From: a virus
Lineage: Duplodnaviria > Heunggongvirae > Uroviricota > Caudoviricetes
IMG/VR virus record: IMGVR_UViG_2585427754_000004
Reading direction: 5' to 3' (one strand)
DNA length: 64,000 bases
This document shows positions 2,943 through 51,345 of this stretch, piece after piece (position 1 is the stretch's first letter; each line of letters begins with the position of its first letter). Below the pieces are notes generated by a model. The model was given only the letters and a program-made list of their open reading frames with translations, had not been told where the DNA came from and did no database searches. A program made the translations under genes and the position numbers.

Positions 2943-3464
2943 TTATTCGTCGAACAATTTTTCGATAGATTTTGTAGGATAGAACAAAGAACGCTCGTTG
3001 TTACCAACCAGCTGGATAAAGCCTAAACTTTTATAAAACGCCTTGGCTTTGTCATTTAACGCCTCAACGAAAAGTCCATGAATGCCTACAGCAAGAGATG
3101 CATTGTACACAACGCGCATTGCATGTGTTACAAGCATTGAGCCAAATCCTTGACCTTGAAGGGACTTGTCCAAAGCCAGCCTACCCAAAGTAACACTTGG
3201 AACATTCCGATAAGGAACCTTCTTTTGTTTGCTTCTTGAAGGTAAGGACTCCTTTTCAAAACAACTACCTGACAAAGTGTAATATCCTAACACTTTTGGC
3301 CTTTCTTCTTGAGTGCAAAGCACATAAGCACGAAGAATTTTTCCCTCATGCTGCCTTTTTAAGTGGTTGGCTAAAAAGGCGTTTAGTGACTCTTCGCCGC
3401 AATCAAAACCGTTTAGATCATAATCTTTCTCTCCAGAGAAAATCTCTATCGTTGTATTGCTCAC
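2943..3464 (-). CDS. GNAT-family acetyltransferase toxin (TacT/KacT-like) of a type II toxin-antitoxin pair
   Basis: 173 aa with acetyl-CoA-binding signature QGQGFGSMLV; 7 bp downstream of a DUF1778-type antitoxin gene on the same strand. Confidence 0.75.
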   Translation of the reverse strand: MSNTTIEIFSGEKDYDLNGFDCGEESLNAFLANHLKRQHEGKILRAYVLCTQEERPKVLGYYTLSGSCFEKESLPSRSKQKKVPYRNVPSVTLGRLALDKSLQGQGFGSMLVTHAMRVVYNASLAVGIHGLFVEALNDKAKAFYKSLGFIQLVGNNERSLFYPTKSIEKLFDE

Positions 3465-3471
3465 GAGTAAA

Positions 3472-3741
3472 CTACTCCATGCTTTTCAGACGATCAGCAG
3501 CTCGTTTCAGCTTGTCGTTCGGTGCCGGAGGATTGCTTATAGCGTCCATAACCAGATTCCAGGATTCTTCATTCAGAACTAGTCTACGGTGTTGCTCTAT
3601 AACTTTCACGGCACGTTCAGATGCACTGCTAACCATAAACTGAGTAATGCTCTGGTTAGACATTGCGGCAGCTTCCTCGATGATGCTTTTATCGTCATCG
3701 GTTAATCTCAAATCGATGCGCTGCTTTTTTAGTGCTGACAT
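3472..3741 (-). CDS. DUF1778 ribbon-helix-helix antitoxin (TacA/KacA-like)
   Basis: Translation MSALKKQRIDLRLTDDDKSIIEEAA ... NPPAPNDKL is typical of DUF1778 antitoxins. ATG at 3741 (minus strand) preceded by AGGAGG; ORF track extends to 3780. Confidence 0.7.
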   Translation of the reverse strand: MSALKKQRIDLRLTDDDKSIIEEAAAMSNQSITQFMVSSASERAVKVIEQHRRLVLNEESWNLVMDAISNPPAPNDKLKRAADRLKSME

Positions 3742-3752
3742 GTATTCCTCCT

Positions 3753-3779
3753 GATGGCCGTGATGTAGGAAGGCCATCA
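3753..3779. promoter_or_regulatory. Inverted repeat TGATGGCC-N11-GGCCATCA upstream of the antitoxin gene (candidate autoregulatory operator)
   Basis: Perfect 8-bp arms immediately 5' of the antitoxin ribosome-binding site. Confidence 0.35.
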
Positions 3780-4059
3780 ATCTCCTCTGTTCAAACTGAG
3801 TTTTCGACTCAAAAATTACTTTAAAAGGCTATAGCCCATTACGTGTGCATTATCAAATTGTGTACGGCATATCACCGTACTTGTAATATAGATGTCATTG
3901 TTACTTTTTTCAACAGACAAATACAAGCTATGTTTGCCAATTGTTAATCACAACCTACCATTTAACCTTTACACCGCAGCCGTAGGCATTTAGGCTATAT
4001 CACATATAAGAAAACAAGTTGTTTCAGACGATAATTATATACGCAAAGGGAACTCTCCA

Positions 4060-4728
4060 ATGACCAAGATCTTTGTGGTTGGCGGCACAAAGGGCGGGCC
4101 TGGCAAATCCACCGTTGCCCAGCAAATTGCCGTTTGCCTGAAAGTCAAAAAGAAGAAGAAGGTTTATATTACCGATATAGATATTCAGCGCACGACAACG
4201 AGCTGGTGTGAAGACCGTCGACAGAACGAAGACCTTGAGCTGATTCCTTTTGCATACGTTCAGGATGACATCATTAAGCACCTAAAATCGCTTCAGGGTA
4301 GAGCTGAGTTTGTAGTGGTAGATGCTGGTGGCTTCGACTCCGAAATTCAGCGACAAGCGATGCTGATGGCTGACGTTATCATTATCCCGCTGCGTCCTAA
4401 GCGTCGTGATTTGAAATCTTTACGTGACATCGATCCTATTATCGACAATGTTCGCAATGTAAACGATAAAGTGAAGGTCCGCGCGGTCATGAACCAGTGC
4501 CCGGCTTTGCCATCACAAGTGTCTCGCATTCTGGCGGCTAAAGAGATTGTTGAGACGTTTGGAATCGAGTCTGCGCCAGTCAATCTATATAACCGCAACG
4601 TCTATGATGATGCGGAAGAGTCTGGTCGCTCTATCTTTGAAATGACCGGTAGCGAGCGCGACAAAAAGGCGGAAGCCGAGTTTGAAGAATTTGTAGATTA
4701 TCTGTTGAGTCTGGAGGAAGAAGAATAA
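4060..4728 (+). CDS. parA: ParA-family partition ATPase (small type Ib)
   Basis: Deviant Walker A GGTKGGPGKST at the N-terminus; 222 aa; followed by a small RHH protein. Confidence 0.75.
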   Translation: MTKIFVVGGTKGGPGKSTVAQQIAVCLKVKKKKKVYITDIDIQRTTTSWCEDRRQNEDLELIPFAYVQDDIIKHLKSLQGRAEFVVVDAGGFDSEIQRQAMLMADVIIIPLRPKRRDLKSLRDIDPIIDNVRNVNDKVKVRAVMNQCPALPSQVSRILAAKEIVETFGIESAPVNLYNRNVYDDAEESGRSIFEMTGSERDKKAEAEFEEFVDYLLSLEEEE

Positions 4729-5087
4729 TGTCCATGAAAATGGGTGACCTAGCAAAGCGCAAAGAGCCTGATGCACCGGCTAAGAACACAACTCCTTTGC
4801 GCCAACCAGTCAGACCACAGGGACGCCCGACTCGTGGCAAAGAGAAAATTAAAAGCCGCACAATGTCACTGGAGGACGAATACTTCGAACTGCTGGAGAT
4901 GATGAAGTTCATCCCTCGCTTCGAGAAATTCACCCGTTCAGACGTGATTCGCGCAGCCATTTTCCATCTGGCAGAGAAGTCACCGCAGGAAATCGAGGAC
5001 ATCGTGAAACTTAACGAGGCGATCACAGCTGCCGATGTCACGATGCGTACCGATGAAATCAAACGAGAGTTGATGAAAAAAGGTTAA
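4728..5087 (+). CDS. Ribbon-helix-helix partition protein (ParG/ParB-like centromere-binding candidate)
   Basis: 119 aa with basic N-terminal tail and C-terminal RHH-like segment (TRSDVIRAAIFHLAE); start overlaps the parA stop. Confidence 0.45.
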   Translation: MSMKMGDLAKRKEPDAPAKNTTPLRQPVRPQGRPTRGKEKIKSRTMSLEDEYFELLEMMKFIPRFEKFTRSDVIRAAIFHLAEKSPQEIEDIVKLNEAITAADVTMRTDEIKRELMKKG

Positions 5088-5092
5088 AAATC

Positions 5093-5123
5093 ATGCATTG
5101 GCGCGTACATTGCGCCAATGCAT
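5093..5123. terminator. Perfect 12-bp inverted repeat between the convergent partition and GIY-YIG genes
   Basis: ATGCATTGGCGC-gtacatt-GCGCCAATGCAT. Confidence 0.5.
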
Positions 5124-5139
5124 AACTACAGTGTCAGCT

Positions 5140-5907
5140 TTATGCCGCGCTAACACTATGTTCAGTCCTAACCACCCCAACCTTCACAAAAGGGCTACCG
5201 TAGCTTGGTGGTTTCTTGATTAATTTGCCTACATACAGTTTTCTAATATGCTCATCGGCTATTCTGCCAACAAATTCATAACGTTTTGTGTCGGGGCCAA
5301 GAGCTATATCCCTTGTAAAGTACTGCTGAGAACCGGCTTTGACCCAGCATTCAATCCGATAAACTTCCATTATCAGCCCACCATATGTAGCGTAGGCATA
5401 TTTGAGATTCTCGTCTCTTGGAACCTTTGCCCATACGCCACGCGTAGCTTCATATAATGCCAGAGCGGACATTCCTGACTTGTAGGTGCTGTTTAGCAGG
5501 AAGGCAAGACCGGCGTGCTCAGGAGCAATTTCAGTTTCCTCTTGCAGCACTAAGTGATGGTAGGCGTCCAGTGATATTCTGCCCATCATGGAACCACTTC
5601 CTCGTACCTTATTCGTAAGCTCTCCGACCCCCATAAGGTCGATGCATGTCGCCTCAACAAGTTTGGCTGTGGTTTCATCCATACCATGACGAAGTATATC
5701 TATGCCTAATTTTTTATTAGCCAAAAGTTCTTTGATCCGCATGGATTTGGGAGAGTCATCGGGATACTTGATGTGATCGAGACAACGAGTCGATTTGCCT
5801 TTTCCTATGTAAAACGGTCTTTTCATCTTGTCTTCTGTATCATAGAGACAGTAAACATAGTATTTAGCCTTATCCAATGATCTCGCGTATACCGATAAAT
5901 CGTCCAT
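5140..5907 (-). CDS. GIY-YIG domain protein (homing-endonuclease-like or other nuclease)
   Basis: N-terminus YYVYCLYD ... PFYIGKGK ... R ... H matches the GIY-YIG fold. Opposite orientation to its neighbours. Confidence 0.45.
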   Translation of the reverse strand: MDDLSVYARSLDKAKYYVYCLYDTEDKMKRPFYIGKGKSTRCLDHIKYPDDSPKSMRIKELLANKKLGIDILRHGMDETTAKLVEATCIDLMGVGELTNKVRGSGSMMGRISLDAYHHLVLQEETEIAPEHAGLAFLLNSTYKSGMSALALYEATRGVWAKVPRDENLKYAYATYGGLIMEVYRIECWVKAGSQQYFTRDIALGPDTKRYEFVGRIADEHIRKLYVGKLIKKPPSYGSPFVKVGVVRTEHSVSAA

Positions 5908-6017
5908 TATTGCATCTCTTAGCTACTGACTAATGCGTTCTATTTTACACATAAGTTTTTAATCAATTTAACAGGCTCAAAGTGTAGAGCTTCTGGGCGT
6001 CTAAGACGACAAGTTAT

Positions 6018-6075
6018 GCCTGCTTCTGTATATATATAAATAATAAGTAACTTATTAAATATATACGGAAGCAGG
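6018..6075. repeat. AT-rich palindromic element of about 58 bp, copy 1
   Basis: GCCTGCTTCTGTATATAT ... ATATACGGAAGCAGG with AATAAGTAACTTATT at the centre; a near-identical element occurs at 51287..51345. Confidence 0.6.
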
Positions 6076-6182
6076 TCTTTTAAAAGACACCACCAGAACA
6101 AGTCCCTTCCGTTTCCACTTCCAAAAACTGCCACCAGTCGCTATCATCCGCTCATTGTGATAAGTAAGTAACTACCTACCAG

Positions 6183-6932
6183 GTGAGCCACATGAGCCAA
6201 ATCTTTTTCGATACCATCGACAACGACCAGTACGACTTCATGACAGAGTGGAATACCGCTGTTATGGACAAGTGGGTCGCTGAAAACATTGGTTTGTCGC
6301 GCTGTAAAGATGAGGCTGAACTCTTCGAGACGAAGTGGTTTGATTACCGCGACATGCATCCTCTGATGGCCACCTGTCTATTTACGGAGGCATACAAACG
6401 TCAGTACTCAAATATCATGCTGACGCACGGTCGCGAACACTTTGAAACAGCTCCGTTCACCACCGGGTTAAAACGCCTGCCTTATCAGGAGTTGTCGACT
6501 GCCAATAAAACGTCGCTATGGAAAGCACGCCAGTTTGCGGATCGCTATTGCTGCTCATACGACTACTTTATCTCCACCGTTCTTTCCGCAGCTGCACGAC
6601 GGCTGTGGGACAAGCTGCCGCGTCCGCAGCATTTGTGGCAGCCAGAACTGATTGAGATATTTGAAGATAAATTAGCCAGACGCGCAACAACCCGTCTGGA
6701 TGACTCTCTGGTTAGCTTTAAGCATATGGGAGACATGCAGTTCAACCCGATTCAGGAAAGCTATTTTGAGTGGATTCTGGAGCGTTTGCGCACCATCCCC
6801 CGCAGCAAGCGCATACGCGCAATTTTCTCCGCTATCTGGCTAATGGAAATCGTTCCAGAGCGCCTTATTTCCGCCCACTTTCCAGAAGAACTGGAAGAAG
6901 CACGGCGGTTTATTGATCCCCTATCTAATTAA
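6183..6932 (+). CDS. Hypothetical protein (immediately upstream of the helicase)
   Basis: 249-aa ORF with upstream TAAGTA palindrome motif; no recognisable motif. Confidence 0.35.
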   Translation: MSHMSQIFFDTIDNDQYDFMTEWNTAVMDKWVAENIGLSRCKDEAELFETKWFDYRDMHPLMATCLFTEAYKRQYSNIMLTHGREHFETAPFTTGLKRLPYQELSTANKTSLWKARQFADRYCCSYDYFISTVLSAAARRLWDKLPRPQHLWQPELIEIFEDKLARRATTRLDDSLVSFKHMGDMQFNPIQESYFEWILERLRTIPRSKRIRAIFSAIWLMEIVPERLISAHFPEELEEARRFIDPLSN

Positions 6933-6975
6933 CTAATACTAGAAAACAATTTGTTTAAAAAACAAAGGAAAGCAC

Positions 6976-8316
6976 ATGACCGAACTTTGCCATACAGGAC
7001 GCGGGCTGTCCGAAGAGTTTGATGAAGATTTTCAGAACAGATTGACGGCCTATTTTTGTCGTGATCACGAGTTTCTTACTCGTGCTGGAGATCTGGTTGT
7101 ACCTAGCCAATTTGCCAATGCGGCCAATGCCATATTGGTTAATATGGTTTCGGGCTATTACCGTATGTACAAGAGCGCGCCCTCTTCATCTGCGATTCTG
7201 GATATGCTTAAGCGTGCGAAACGCGATAAGACTATCCGTGAGGAACTATTCGCCGATGTTGTTGCTGCGTTTAAGCGCATCCTTGCAGAAAAATTGTCTG
7301 ATACCTCGTACATGGTTGACCAGGTATCAACCTTCGCAAAAAGTGTAGCGTTTGATGATGCTCTGATTAAGGCTGCTGAACTGAAAGAGAAAGGCGACTT
7401 TCAGGGGGCGATGGCAATCATGGCCAAGGTTCAGCAGATTGGATCGAACGAAGCGACCGGAATCTATGACTACTACACCTCCGCAAGTGAGCGATTGAAG
7501 GCGCGTGAATATGAGGCTTCAGAGGAGTATGTGCCAAACAGCATTACAACTGGACTCCCTCTGCTCGATAGGTTGCTGTACCAAAAAGGCTGGGCGAAGC
7601 GTGAAATGGTGCTCTTCATGGGGTTCGCTAAATCCGGTAAATCGACCGCAATGGGTGAGTTTTCCATAAACGCAACACTTGCTGGCTACAATGTTCTGTA
7701 TCTCTCGCTGGAGGTTCACACCACCATTTTATCCGACCGTTTTGATGCAAGATTGTCGGAGACAGAAATGTCCAAGCTGGTGGAACGGCGCGATGAGGTT
7801 CATCGTAAGTTGGCAGAGTTGGGAGCCACGAAGGGGATTGGTAGTTTGTGGGTGGTTGAGCGTCCGTCAGGAAGTATGTCACCGGCAGATCTGGACCGTA
7901 TGCTTAACAGCATGAAAGCCAACGGCATGGTACCTGACATGGTTGTTGTCGACTACGCAGATTTGATGCGTGCCAGTTATGACCTTCGTGATGATCGCGC
8001 CAACATTCGTAGTATCTACACCGATTTACGTGCTCTTTATGACAAGCATAACGTTGCTGGGATCACGGCATCGCAGACAAACCGTGAAGGTGGCGCGTCA
8101 GAAGTTGCCACAATGATGCACGCTGCCGACAACATCGAAAAAGTACGTATTGCTGACCTGGTAATAACGATCAACAAAACCGAAGAAGAAGAAGCGAAAG
8201 GAGAGGCTCGTCTCTACTTTGCTGGTTCACGTAACCAGCAGGGAGGGATCAGCATTCGCGTTAAACAAAACCTCGAACAAATGCGCTTCATTGAGCGAAT
8301 CTTAGACGTTACCTAA
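6976..8316 (+). CDS. DnaB-family replicative DNA helicase
   Basis: Walker A GFAKSGKST, Walker B VVVDYADLM, RecA-like C-terminal domain; conserved upstream AAACAAnTTGTTT motif and shared translation-initiation sequence. Confidence 0.7.
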   Translation: MTELCHTGRGLSEEFDEDFQNRLTAYFCRDHEFLTRAGDLVVPSQFANAANAILVNMVSGYYRMYKSAPSSSAILDMLKRAKRDKTIREELFADVVAAFKRILAEKLSDTSYMVDQVSTFAKSVAFDDALIKAAELKEKGDFQGAMAIMAKVQQIGSNEATGIYDYYTSASERLKAREYEASEEYVPNSITTGLPLLDRLLYQKGWAKREMVLFMGFAKSGKSTAMGEFSINATLAGYNVLYLSLEVHTTILSDRFDARLSETEMSKLVERRDEVHRKLAELGATKGIGSLWVVERPSGSMSPADLDRMLNSMKANGMVPDMVVVDYADLMRASYDLRDDRANIRSIYTDLRALYDKHNVAGITASQTNREGGASEVATMMHAADNIEKVRIADLVITINKTEEEEAKGEARLYFAGSRNQQGGISIRVKQNLEQMRFIERILDVT

Positions 8317-8325
8317 AAAATAAGC

Positions 8326-9579
8326 GTGGAGAACACCTCCACGCTTGATTCATTGGTGAAACAACTTTTCTTTTGCCAAACCACAAAAGAAAAACACATG
8401 AGCCTTTATGTTATATCAACATTTAGGTTGGTCACAATATTGCCTGTTAAAAGTGGAATTATCGTGAGCGAGCTGAAAGAGCTAATTACCGAATTAGATT
8501 TTGAACAATGGTTGGATACTGAAGGTATCGTTTATCGACGTGGAGGCGTGAGTACTCGCGGTCGTGAAGTGAATATCAAGGAGTGTCCGGTATGTGGCAG
8601 CTCCAACTGGAAGGTATATTTCAATCTGACCAGTGGCGTCGGTAAATGCTTCGCTGGTGATCATCCCGAAGAGATTCAGTTCAATAAGCTGGTCTTCCTC
8701 AAGCACTACAGCGGCAAATCACGACGACAGTTCGAGGAATATGTGCAGAACGCCCTTCTTTCCCAGGGGTGGGCACCAAAGAAAGAAGAGATAGTGCTTG
8801 CAAGCACAGTCGAGTTAGAGGGACCACTTGCACTCCCTCGTCATTACGAACTTCCTATAGATGGCCGTCTTCCAGACTATCTGGTTGAACGAAACATATC
8901 GCCTGAAATGGCAAAGTATTTTGACCTACGATACTGCGTCGAAGGCAAGCACGCTTATGTAGATCCGTATACAGATCAGGTTAAAGGACAGATATTCGAT
9001 ATGCGAATACTGATACCGGTTTACGATCTGGATGGGGTAATGAAGACATTTCAGGGGCGAGACATTACCGGTACAGCTGAACGTCGCTACCTCTTTCCTA
9101 TGCAGCTTCCAGCTTCAGGTAAGTTTCTCTACAACGGCCATAATGCGGTCGGCAAACAGACTGTAGTTGTCTGTGAGGGGGCGTTCGATGTTATGGGAGT
9201 TAAACGAGCTATTTTTGATGAAGAAACATTACGTGATTACGTGGAACCGATAGGAACGTTCGGGATGCATCTATCTGGTAACACCACTCAGGATGCAGAA
9301 GATCAGTTGGGCGCGTTCCTGACGCTCAAGGCGCGTGGATTACGTAATGTGATCATGATGTGGGATAGTGAAAAGCAAGCTATACGCAACACTATGGCCG
9401 CAGCCAGGCGACTGACCAGTATTGGTCTTAATGTCAAAGTAGCATGTTTGGGCGAGGAAGGACTCGACCCAGGCGATGCAACGCCAGAACAAATTATCAA
9501 AGCCTATTATCGGGCAAAACCGTATACCAAACAGTTGGAGTTGCAAAGCAAGGTTTTGGGCATTAAGGCGCTATCGTAA
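8326..9579 (+). CDS. DNA primase (zinc-binding plus TOPRIM)
   Basis: CPVCGSS ... KCFAGDH zinc-binding element, TOPRIM-like VVVCEGAFDVMGV; adjacent to the helicase. Start may be an internal Met. Confidence 0.6.
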   Translation: MENTSTLDSLVKQLFFCQTTKEKHMSLYVISTFRLVTILPVKSGIIVSELKELITELDFEQWLDTEGIVYRRGGVSTRGREVNIKECPVCGSSNWKVYFNLTSGVGKCFAGDHPEEIQFNKLVFLKHYSGKSRRQFEEYVQNALLSQGWAPKKEEIVLASTVELEGPLALPRHYELPIDGRLPDYLVERNISPEMAKYFDLRYCVEGKHAYVDPYTDQVKGQIFDMRILIPVYDLDGVMKTFQGRDITGTAERRYLFPMQLPASGKFLYNGHNAVGKQTVVVCEGAFDVMGVKRAIFDEETLRDYVEPIGTFGMHLSGNTTQDAEDQLGAFLTLKARGLRNVIMMWDSEKQAIRNTMAAARRLTSIGLNVKVACLGEEGLDPGDATPEQIIKAYYRAKPYTKQLELQSKVLGIKALS

Positions 9580-51286: not shown

Positions 51287-51345
51287 AGCCTGCTTCTGTA
51301 TATATAAATAACTACATATTAATTATTAATATACGGAAGCAGGCT
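51287..51345. repeat. AT-rich palindromic element, copy 2 (also a likely terminator)
   Basis: AGCCTGCTTCTGTATATA ... TATACGGAAGCAGGCT followed by TGTTTTA; near-identical arms to the element at 6018..6075. Confidence 0.6.

Follow-up and report, generated by a model that had tools for sequence, protein, structure and literature searches.

A probable single-protein type IV restriction endonuclease of the PD-T4-3/CMoRE family in a cargo cassette of an SSU5-like phage-plasmid

The window analysed here, a stretch of 64,000 nucleotides from a virus of the Caudoviricetes (IMG/VR record IMGVR_UViG_2585427754_000004), is an E. coli phage-plasmid of the SSU5-like type, and the 255-residue GIY-YIG protein that it encodes on the minus strand is most likely a one-protein, modification-dependent restriction enzyme (type IV) from the PD-T4-3/CMoRE family, carried in a self-contained cargo cassette. 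A defence family lodged in an accessory slot is an ordinary arrangement, of which this gene is a further member; PD-T4-3 has already been reported, using DefenseFinder, in phage-plasmids of the SSU5 group from E. coli and Shigella (bioRxiv 10.1101/2025.09.12.675607). The gain is one of annotation: its database labels are 'hypothetical' and 'LEM-3-like GIY-YIG', and a reader could easily take it for a homing endonuclease. The first-pass annotation of this DNA had preferred that reading and kept a defence nuclease as a fallback, and it is the fallback that is now favoured by the match of both domains to PD-T4-3/CMoRE.

CMoRE, encoded by one gene, is a type IV enzyme that cleaves the 5hmC- or glucosyl-5hmC-containing (5ghmC) DNA of T-even phages and protects against T2, T4 and T6 (PDB entries 9U75 and 9U7U; Liu et al., 2026; PMC12923530). 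The sources of PD-T4-3/CMoRE are E. coli O157:H7 and APEC O1, the system having first been found in ECOR68 by functional selection (PMC12923530). Canonical members do not cut DNA containing C or 5mC, and they protect against T-even phages without abortive infection; the cuts of CMoRE follow a CN11/N9G pattern, leaving 3' overhangs of 2 nt. PD-T4-3 is active in its native E. coli host, where vertical plasmid transmission is unaffected. A homologue from Capnocytophaga, PD-T4-3Capno, is 48% identical to PD-T4-3 and still acts in E. coli as a nuclease that depends on modification, which indicates that the function of the family survives divergence (Rodriguez-Rodriguez et al., 2025; PMC12366544).

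Table 1. Features of the nuclease cassette and its surroundings (window coordinates).
Feature	Coordinates	Strand	Basis
parA-type partition ATPase gene, backbone	4060..4728	+	Pfam MipZ, AAA_31, CbiA and ParA matches
Small parB-like gene	4728..5087	+	phrog_5111, E = 4.5e-80
Cargo cassette, 933 bp: hairpin, CMoRE-like gene and 111-bp upstream region	5086..6018	.	Comparison with relatives
Perfect hairpin with 12-bp arms	5093..5123	-	Arm complementarity, RNA fold
PD-T4-3/CMoRE-like GIY-YIG nuclease gene	5140..5907	-	PADLOC, PDB, HHalign and Foldseek matches
C-terminal domain, residues 125-243, homologous to the CMoRE modified-base-sensing domain	5179..5535	-	Domain-only AlphaFold model
GIY-YIG domain with catalytic residues	5596..5874	-	Residue alignment to CMoRE; Pfam PF22945 on residues 32-104
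Upstream region of the nuclease gene, 111 bp	5908..6018	-	Within conserved cassette; sequence read directly
Backbone palindrome, 57 bp, right edge of the slot	6019..6075	+	Alignment of relatives, RNA fold

The open reading frame begins with ATG and has the coordinates given to it in the first pass. Its identification as a GIY-YIG protein is borne out by Pfam model PF22945 (LEM-3-like GIY-YIG domain; E = 5.6e-7, above the curated cutoff), and its RefSeq/PGAP label is 'LEM-3-like GIY-YIG domain-containing protein'; an NCBIfam search returned no family for the nuclease. PD-T4-3 was the sole PADLOC match (E = 1.6e-23), with residues 11-231 aligned to positions 11-238 of the 256-position model and a score of 82 bits, compared with 463 bits for a canonical member. 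A sequence search of the PDB matched only the CMoRE entries 9U7U and 9U75 (E = 2-3e-15, residues 12-230), and an HHalign profile-profile comparison with canonical CMoRE gave 99.7% (E = 8e-27) over 211 columns covering both domains, with an identity to the characterized CMoRE of only 27-32%. Residues Y17, Y19, Y33, R41, H45, E85 and N99 align with CMoRE Y17, Y19, Y31, R39, H43, E93 and N105, and the aligned catalytic residues, including the GIYxY-YIG tyrosines and the Arg, His, Glu and Asn, are invariant in both the canonical branch and that of the window protein, as judged over 35 + 30 sequences from the two branches.

The four top PDB matches in a Foldseek search with the full-length model (pLDDT 84.7) were CMoRE structures (E = 5e-11, probability 1.0), despite which the global TM-score against CMoRE was low (0.37, with an rmsd of 17 Å); the low value is attributed, not provably, to a presumably flexible linker between the domains. 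Because of this result the C-terminal domain was modelled alone using AlphaFold (pLDDT 82.5), and its best PDB match was 9u75_D (TM 0.64, rmsd 3.8 Å, E = 4e-7), the set of 9u75_D, 9u75_A, 9u7z and 9u7u spanning TM-scores of 0.60-0.64, rmsds of 3.8-4.2 Å and E values of 4e-7 to 2.5e-5. Beyond the CMoRE structures the fold search with this domain gave no significant match, the next E values being 0.07 or higher; a YTH-like resemblance of the sensor domain, which recurred among the weak matches (E = 0.07-0.3, probability < 0.4, TM about 0.3), was rejected as not significant. No partner gene is present in the 933-bp cassette, and the organization is thus that of a single gene, as in PD-T4-3/CMoRE. 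Judged from sequence and structural models, the window protein is homologous to PD-T4-3/CMoRE over its full length and in both domains, and belongs to a diverged branch. It resembles CMoRE in being the product of a single gene, in its length of about 255 residues, in homology across both domains and in the fold of the C-terminal domain; on the other hand, its gene is borne by a phage-plasmid and that of CMoRE by the chromosome.

Enzymes of the PvuRts1I/AbaSI family likewise unite a nuclease domain and a reader of modified cytosine in one polypeptide aimed at T-even DNA, but their folds, a PD-(D/E)XK nuclease and an SRA-like reader, are unrelated to those of GIY-YIG/CMoRE. The likeness to the window protein is one of role, and no member of that family matched it in the PDB sequence or fold searches. 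Two reports describe these enzymes as 5hmC-dependent type IV restriction enzymes (PMC4027163, PMC4081097).

The gene is, as had been noticed, encoded on the opposite strand of an otherwise co-directional region, being the sole minus-strand gene between the parA/parB-like genes (4060-5087, plus strand), of which the parA counterpart is annotated as ParA in phages Cyrano, SSU5 and PhiR41_1, and a plus-strand block with phrog_2500 and DnaB-like helicase/primase genes (6183-9579). It is inserted there in the comparative sense, in that relatives lack this DNA at the position concerned. All comparisons put the breakpoints at 5085/5086 and 6018/6019. The variable slot is bounded on the left by the parB-like stop codon (5085-5087), and homology with relatives bearing other cargo stops at 5085. 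The cassette is absent, with the flanks still aligning, from Cyrano, SSU5, CP054387 and the relatives L009-L012 and L014/L015. Between the parB-like stop and the palindrome, the slot holds at least six unrelated alternative cassettes, the occupants including a DUF2971 gene (PADLOC candidate PDC-S31), a KAP NTPase gene (PDC-S49), two pairs of unknown genes and a minus-strand gene for a 225-residue protein; contiguous flanks, that is, an empty slot, were found in eight of 802 plasmid records (about 1%), an example being L014 (NZ_CP113488) at its positions 1480-1600.

In NZ_CP086388 the cassette is 98.2% identical to that of the window and the flanks are only 86.8% and 83.8% identical. A near-identical cassette in a backbone of 84-87% identity points to exchange by recombination, and mosaic tracts of identity surround the slot; the GC content of the cassette (0.41-0.48) offers no useful difference from the backbone. 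Of 5426 complete E. coli genomes, 107 have the cassette, in every case on a plasmid; it is the commonest allele seen in this species, present in 107 of the 264 genomes that have this par locus, with the nuclease reading frame intact and 95-99.8% identical across the 107 plasmids. A plasmid search placed window-type genes in about 140 SSU5-type phage-plasmids, and among its sampled matches no canonical CMoRE lay in such an element. These comparisons indicate that the cassette travels as a unit and that the slot serves as an accessory-cargo site, with a fixed position, interchangeable unrelated cargo and an identity of the cassette that is uncoupled from that of the backbone. As a defence hotspot it is no more than a candidate, because two of the alternative occupants are only 'candidate' defence genes in PADLOC.

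The site resembles the defence and cargo hotspots known from temperate phages and satellites, such as those of P2 and P4 (PMC13586616), in its fixed position between conserved genes, in its interchangeable and often single-gene defence cargo and in the decoupling of cassette from backbone, and differs from them in lying between the stop of the partition operon and a terminator-like palindrome of an SSU5-like phage-plasmid, and in that only some of its occupants are recognized defence genes. A literature search on SSU5 and hotspots yielded no title or abstract describing this par-side slot. It is a compact and well delimited cargo site, and its unknown occupants are candidate new defence genes.

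By homology to CMoRE, the nuclease would be made from its own promoter during the plasmid state of the element. The C-terminal domain would bind the modified bases of incoming phage DNA, upon which the N-terminal GIY-YIG domain would cut the modified DNA and spare the unmodified DNA of the host and of the phage-plasmid; the lysogen, and hence the phage-plasmid, would be protected from T4-like competitors. The cassettes would be swapped among related phage-plasmids by recombination in the conserved flanks. The promoter of the nuclease gene presumably lies in 5908-6018, where a Shine-Dalgarno-like AAGAGA occurs at 5915-5920, and a scan of 4900-6300 on both strands for consensus promoters and terminators called nothing, including no σ70 consensus promoter. 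If the predicted activity holds, it is most likely through this enzyme that some 40% of SSU5-like phage-plasmids from complete E. coli genomes confer resistance to T4-like phages, which bears on the host range of phages used in therapy and on the persistence of widespread 'cryptic' plasmids.

The branch to which the window protein belongs departs from CMoRE in several features. A hallmark of CMoRE, shared by 'most' members, is an autoinhibitory loop of negative charge that covers the active site, formed by a 15-residue insert with four consecutive acidic residues (PMC12923530); the canonical lid reads GEVAATDDDEL. In the window protein the loop between H45 and K54 is five to six residues shorter and has the sequence YPDDSP, where two acidic residues stand in place of the four of CMoRE, and the short loop is common to the whole branch; since the hallmark was claimed for 'most' members only, its truncation marks a variant and does not exclude the protein from the family. 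CMoRE Tyr127, invariant in the canonical branch, is replaced by Val120, at a position that is variable within the window branch (L, Q, I, R and others). CMoRE is a tetramer, a dimer of dimers, and needs this assembly for function; of its interface residues, V92 aligns with V84, conserved as Val or Ile in the branch, and Leu96 aligns with Cys88, an invariant Cys in the branch. As a consequence of the short lid, the loss of Tyr127 and the change of Leu96 to Cys, the substrate could differ from 5hmC/5ghmC. We tentatively suggest, as an idea with perhaps more against it than for it, that this short-lid branch, with its truncated acidic safety catch, reads another modification or tells self from non-self in another manner, and that the 3' end of the par operon in SSU5-like phage-plasmids, from stop codon to palindromic terminator, may be a dedicated exchange site for defence cassettes. 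Enzymes specific for modified bases serve as epigenomic tools, and a branch without the full lid and Tyr127 may offer another such specificity.

The same features, conserved across the branch, could be taken further, to a CMoRE-like nuclease whose role is other than defence against T-even phages, for instance excluding competing plasmids or phage-plasmids with a different modification, or reading another hypermodified base. The plasticity of PD-T4-3Capno, which also cuts Mu DNA containing N6-carbamoylmethyl-adenine (PMC12366544), would accommodate such a role, as would the two-domain homologues in virulent jumbo phages, which suggest a use in competition between phages. We regard this as improbable. 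The overall fold and the catalytic core are those of CMoRE, and PD-T4-3 has no effect on vertical plasmid transmission in its native host; moreover, the 5-hydroxyl of 5hmC is contacted in CMoRE by the main-chain oxygen of Tyr127 (PMC12923530), so that a changed side chain at this position is not in itself proof of a new specificity.

A free-standing GIY-YIG homing endonuclease, as first proposed, would cut the cassette-less allele of a co-resident relative, after which repair would copy the cassette in. The GIY-YIG domain is common to the Seg and I-TevI-type enzymes, and the gene, like those for SegA-G of T4 and I-TevI, is intergenic, self-contained and polymorphic among relatives; the cassette is the commonest E. 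coli allele, and distant homologues occur in jumbo phages, some of them annotated as 'homing nuclease'. The C-terminal domain, however, has the fold of the CMoRE modified-base sensor, and a Pfam search matched no NUMOD, helix-turn-helix or zinc-finger domain, whereas viral proteins of the homing type, including those bearing NUMODs, align with no more than some 80-100 residues, all in the catalytic domain (E >= 1e-3). The nearest homologues outside phage-plasmids are, in the main, lone chromosomal genes amid housekeeping genes in Salmonella, Providencia, Shewanella and other Enterobacteria. The site itself is multi-allelic, not simply occupied or empty, and since empty slots make up about 1% of records, a homing target spanning the junction would almost never exist; in addition, alleles that have the cassette and alleles that lack it do not differ in their flanking sequences. 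The 98% identity of the cassette against 84-87% in the flanks, with identity slightly raised in a left-hand tract of about 85 bp and a right-hand one of about 50-100 bp, could be read as co-conversion, but such tracts do not discriminate between homing and ordinary recombination. Mosaic tracts also surround other alleles, such as that of L011, as general recombination would produce, and the rise at 4800-5000 reflects general conservation, since a relative with different cargo shows it too; the part specific to the cassette-bearing relative is limited to the 85 bp and 50-100 bp given above. Taken together, the evidence makes homing highly improbable. Least credible of all is the view that the gene is an inactive or decaying passenger that does nothing at present, for which the absence of a called consensus promoter and an IS100-family element within the matched 3-kb region of one relative (H52) might be cited, but against which stand the intact reading frame in 107 E. 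coli plasmids, the retention by the gene of its own hairpin and upstream region, and the fact that, although identity within the branch falls to about 51%, all catalytic residues and dozens of sites spread over the two domains do not vary.

The inverted repeats on either side of the gene, which had been taken as part of the footprint expected of a homing endonuclease gene, also have another reading, and both count against homing. The repeat on the left is indeed perfect, with 12-nt arms (5093-5104 and 5112-5123) that are 100% complementary around a 7-nt loop. Its minus-strand RNA folds at -25.1 kcal/mol (z = -7.0, with none of 200 shuffles as good) and is followed on that strand by the tail GAUUUUUAACCUUUUUU, so that it looks like the intrinsic terminator of the nuclease gene and could also end the convergent par operon. 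This hairpin is cassette DNA; of the other cassette types examined, most carry a different GC-rich hairpin in its place. The palindrome on the right is likewise real, at 57 bp as against the 58 bp first given, yet it does not adjoin the gene, from which it is separated by the 111 bp of cassette DNA upstream of the start codon. It has outer arms of 21 nt at 90% and inner arms of 16 nt at 88% complementarity (fold z = -7.2, again with none of 200 shuffles as good); the plus-strand RNA folds at -28.1 kcal/mol and runs into UCUUUU, and the minus-strand fold is weaker (-23.3 kcal/mol) and has no U-run. The palindrome thus looks like the plus-strand terminator of a transcription unit comprising par and any cargo. 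As the consensus scan called no terminator, the proposed roles of both structures draw on the RNA folds and on U-tails read by eye.

The palindrome is part of the backbone, being present in ten of ten aligned relatives regardless of cargo, and in empty-slot alleles it lies 30 bp past the parB-like stop. It shares no sequence with the left hairpin, and the two are therefore not the terminal repeats of one element. A transposon-like element was also considered and rejected, the search for terminal repeats or target duplications linking the ends of the cassette having found only pairs at chance level (I10 and I11; 12-14 nt, 79-92%). A second copy of the palindrome lies at 51289-51343 of the window.

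The minus-strand gene under study lies in an otherwise co-directional region of an SSU5-like phage-plasmid, between the partition and replication genes, and the GIY-YIG domain assigned to its 255-amino-acid product by the first-pass annotation was recovered above the curated cutoff (E = 5.6e-7; see table). The region is 98.6–99.1% identical to those of the SSU5-like E. coli phage-plasmids Escherichia phage CMS-2020a (CP053388) and PhiR41_1, approximately 84% identical to that of Salmonella phage SSU5, and is matched by 734 PLSDB plasmids, mostly non-mobilizable and of ~110 kb, from Klebsiella, Escherichia, Enterobacter and Salmonella. Beside the partition genes, just upstream of parA, lies another accessory module on the minus strand, a toxin–antitoxin pair; in two relatives the matching gene is annotated as DUF1778.

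Features of the window and corresponding loci in related elements
Feature	Sequence	Position	Strand	Annotation
Toxin–antitoxin pair	window	2943-3464; 3472-3780	-; -	GNAT acetyltransferase-type toxin (KacT-like) and antitoxin
parA-type ATPase	window	4060-4728	+	
Small parB-like gene	window	4728-5087	+	phrog_5111
Cassette	window	5086-6018		933 bp
Perfect inverted repeat, arms	window	5093-5104; 5112-5123		12 nt, 100% complementary
Perfect inverted repeat, loop	window	5105-5111		GTACATT
CMoRE-like gene	window	5140-5907	-	GIY-YIG domain, Pfam PF22945
Palindrome, first copy	window	6019-6075		57 bp
Conserved gene of unknown function	window	6183-6932	+	phrog_2500
DnaB-like helicase	window	6976-8316	+	
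Primase	window	8326-9579	+	
Palindrome, second copy	window	51289-51343		
Hairpin with inverted loop	NZ_CP086388	1589-1621		AATGTAC
Empty slot	NZ_CP113488	1500-1580		
Empty slot	NZ_CP014707	1495-1585		
Slot cargo	Cyrano; many E. coli, Enterobacter and Salmonella plasmids			DUF2971 protein (PADLOC candidate PDC-S31)
Slot cargo	NZ_OW849379; CP054387 (sequence identity at both junctions)			KAP-family P-loop NTPase (PDC-S49)
Slot cargo	NZ_AP023193			two unknown genes
Slot cargo	SSU5; Citrobacter plasmid			another two unknown genes; in SSU5 then DUF2971
Slot cargo	pLAO4		-	225-aa gene
Slot occupants other than the CMoRE-like gene	relatives' loci L001; L002; L009; L010; L011	2585-3388; 3741-4499; 1640-2807; 1640-3334; 1621-2298		
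CMoRE-like homologue	Serratia phage Moabite	3968-4732		

The only PADLOC match of the window protein is PD-T4-3 (E = 1.6e-23; residues 11–231 against model positions 11–238 of 256), and its only sequence matches in the whole PDB are 9U7U/9U7Z and 9U75/9U8D (E = 2–3e-15; residues 12–230), which are entries for CMoRE, as PD-T4-3 has been renamed (PMC12923530). In CMoRE, a type IV restriction endonuclease made of one protein, the C-terminal domain binds 5hmC or glucosyl-5hmC and the N-terminal GIY-YIG domain cuts DNA (CN11/N9G, leaving 2-nt 3' overhangs); T2, T4 and T6 plate some five orders of magnitude less efficiently in its presence, and no abortive infection is involved (PMC12923530). Profile–profile comparison of the window's branch (35 sequences) with canonical CMoRE (30 sequences) gave a probability of 99.7% (E = 8e-27) over 211 columns that include both domains. 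The tyrosines of the GIYxY-YIG motif (Y17, Y19 and Y33), R41, H45, E85 and N99 align with experimentally essential CMoRE residues and are invariant across both branches. The four CMoRE entries are also the top PDB matches of the AlphaFold model (pLDDT 84.7; E = 5e-11, probability 1.0, ~270 aligned columns), with a global TM of just 0.37, attributed to a presumably flexible interdomain linker. Modelled alone (pLDDT 82.5), the C-terminal domain superposes on CMoRE with a TM of 0.60–0.64 (r.m.s.d. 3.8–4.2 Å) and has no significant match among PDB folds besides CMoRE. The next fold matches, consistently, are YTH domains, which are readers of m6A, at nonsignificant levels (E = 0.07–0.3, probability < 0.4, TM ~0.3), a hint from modelling that the fold of the CMoRE sensor may be very distantly PUA/YTH-like. 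In BFVD, the top match of the model is a myoviral 'PD-(D/E)XK nuclease superfamily protein' (130 columns, r.m.s.d. 2.8 Å). Homology to an experimentally and structurally characterized enzyme thus strongly supports a defence nuclease, which the first-pass annotation had held as its second choice, and assignment to the CMoRE-type restriction endonucleases is well supported.

The window protein nevertheless departs from characterized CMoRE, with which it shares 27–32% identity; its PADLOC PD-T4-3 score is 82 bits (79–98 bits in other members of its branch), compared with 463 bits for E. coli CMoRE. The negatively charged autoinhibitory lid of CMoRE (D52-D53-D54-E55 within a 15-residue insert) is 5–6 residues shorter in the window protein (YPDDSP), and the short loop is found throughout its branch. 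Tyr127 of CMoRE, the main-chain oxygen of which touches the 5-hydroxyl of 5hmC, is invariant in the canonical set, whereas the aligned position is Val120 in the window protein and variable in its branch; the interface residue Leu96 is replaced by a Cys that is invariant in this branch. The exact DNA modification recognized by the window protein is presumed from its homology to CMoRE. In Capnocytophaga, a homologue sharing 48% identity with PD-T4-3 has remained modification-dependent and also cuts Mu DNA (PMC12366544), which indicates that the family tolerates divergence with some plasticity. In a clinical E. coli strain that carries it natively, PD-T4-3 was one of just two systems found to be active. 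The short-lid branch may have another specificity or other means of avoiding self-cleavage.

Comparison with relatives, as proposed in the first-pass annotation, placed the limits of the insertion at 5085/5086, within the parB-like stop codon, and at 6018/6019, where the palindrome begins. The intervening cassette comprises a hairpin, the gene and a 111-bp upstream region, and in other elements the same slot holds different cargo: besides DUF2971 proteins and KAP-family NTPases, several of the other occupants are without a family match and are candidates for uncharacterized defence genes. When both flanks were joined and searched against PLSDB, they were contiguous in just eight of 802 plasmid records; in these empty alleles the parB-like stop is followed by 30 bp, part of which matches the SSU5 sequence directly before the palindrome, and then by the palindrome itself. 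Given the many cargo types and the rarity of empty alleles, the slot is multi-allelic and nearly always occupied. The par locus was found in 264 of 5426 complete E. coli genomes, 107 of which carry the cassette, on plasmids only. The NZ_CP086388 cassette and that of the window share 98.2% identity, against 86.8% and 83.8% for the flanks; binned identity revealed only short extra tracts adjoining the cassette, and other alleles are flanked by independent mosaic tracts of their own. This pattern fits cassette exchange through homologous recombination within the conserved flanks, and the slot may be a dedicated exchange site for defence cassettes. In NZ_CP017847.1 (H52) an IS100-family (IS21-like) element lies inside the matched 3-kb par–cassette–rep region, splitting the match in two.

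The reading preferred in the first-pass annotation, a free-standing homing endonuclease, draws only on the catalytic fold shared with such enzymes and on the mobility of the cassette between backbones, which recombination accounts for equally well. It fails on three testable points, namely a DNA-binding module, an occupied/empty polymorphism and a phage- or intron-centred distribution. Homing-type viral GIY-YIG proteins match only the catalytic domain. Hundreds of proteins of ~246 amino acids make up the window's branch. All four neighbourhoods read are chromosomal, and in each the gene is a singleton surrounded by genes for housekeeping or for ordinary metabolism and regulation, with no recognizable phage or intron setting: near mutS/rpoS on a contig whose protein-cluster name is Providencia heimbachae, near metH in Shewanella baltica, near guaA/guaB in Salmonella, and in another enterobacterium. 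Such lone genes are usual for orphan type IV restriction enzymes and not for homing endonucleases. Besides two near-identical phage-plasmids, the phage collection contained only distant two-domain homologues (25–30% identity, residues 10–236) in virulent jumbo phages that infect Serratia and Pectobacterium (Moabite and about ten others); these proteins may serve as weapons against rival phages whose DNA is modified. In Moabite the gene's neighbours are small consecutive genes with the annotation 'hypothetical'. These homologues are annotated 'GIY-YIG endonuclease', 'endonuclease' or 'nuclease'; the label 'homing nuclease' is given to jumbo-phage proteins of Klebsiella and Pseudomonas that match in part.

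A DefenseFinder survey lists PD-T4-3 in phage-plasmids of the SSU5 group from E. coli and Shigella sonnei (bioRxiv 10.1101/2025.09.12.675607). A partial S. sonnei protein is identical to the window protein. Canonical CMoRE (at least 80% identity) occurs in 12 PLSDB plasmids, and neither of the two among the matches listed is of the ~110-kb phage-plasmid type; among those sampled from 169 distant matches, most are ~110-kb E. coli phage-plasmids with the window-type gene. On these grounds, the calls in the survey most probably refer to the window-type gene. The family is already known and the kind of location ordinary; what is new is this predicted member.

Both repeats described as bounding the gene are present, the palindrome not adjoining it but lying 111 bp from its start; they are unrelated in sequence, and both fold far better than shuffled sequences (z ~ -7, 0/200 shuffles). 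The palindrome belongs to the backbone, since it is kept in ten of ten aligned relatives whatever the cargo and, where the slot is empty, comes straight after the par operon. Its plus-strand RNA folds at -28.1 kcal/mol before UCUUUU, and arm differences in nine of the ten sequences form Watson–Crick or G-U pairs on that strand; the minus-strand RNA folds more weakly and lacks a U-run. We read the palindrome as terminating the par transcription unit, the cargo sitting between stop codon and terminator; it could have a protein-binding role. The second copy has the same outer arms (CCTGCTTCTGTATATA / TATATACGGAAGCAGG) and T/C asymmetry around a different centre, and both copies directly follow the end of a plus-strand ORF and precede a T-run. 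Four occurrences of the 16-nt arm pattern were counted (0.42 expected by chance), and the common sequence suggests a duplicated terminator or protein-binding site.

The perfect repeat is part of the cassette, and its minus-strand RNA folds into a stem of 16 bp (-25.1 kcal/mol) with GAUUUUUAACCUUUUUU after it. Since a simple terminator scan did not call it, we infer rather than assign its role as the intrinsic terminator of the nuclease gene, positioned so that it would halt the convergent par operon as well. In most of the other cassette types that were examined, the parB-like stop is directly followed by the cassette's own, different GC-rich hairpin; the SSU5/Citrobacter type has none there. 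In NZ_CP086388 the 7-nt loop is exactly inverted between unchanged arms, having flipped in place. The E. coli search returned 145 places in 107 records, at most two per genome, and the second places, in ~38 records, possibly reflect the same flip.
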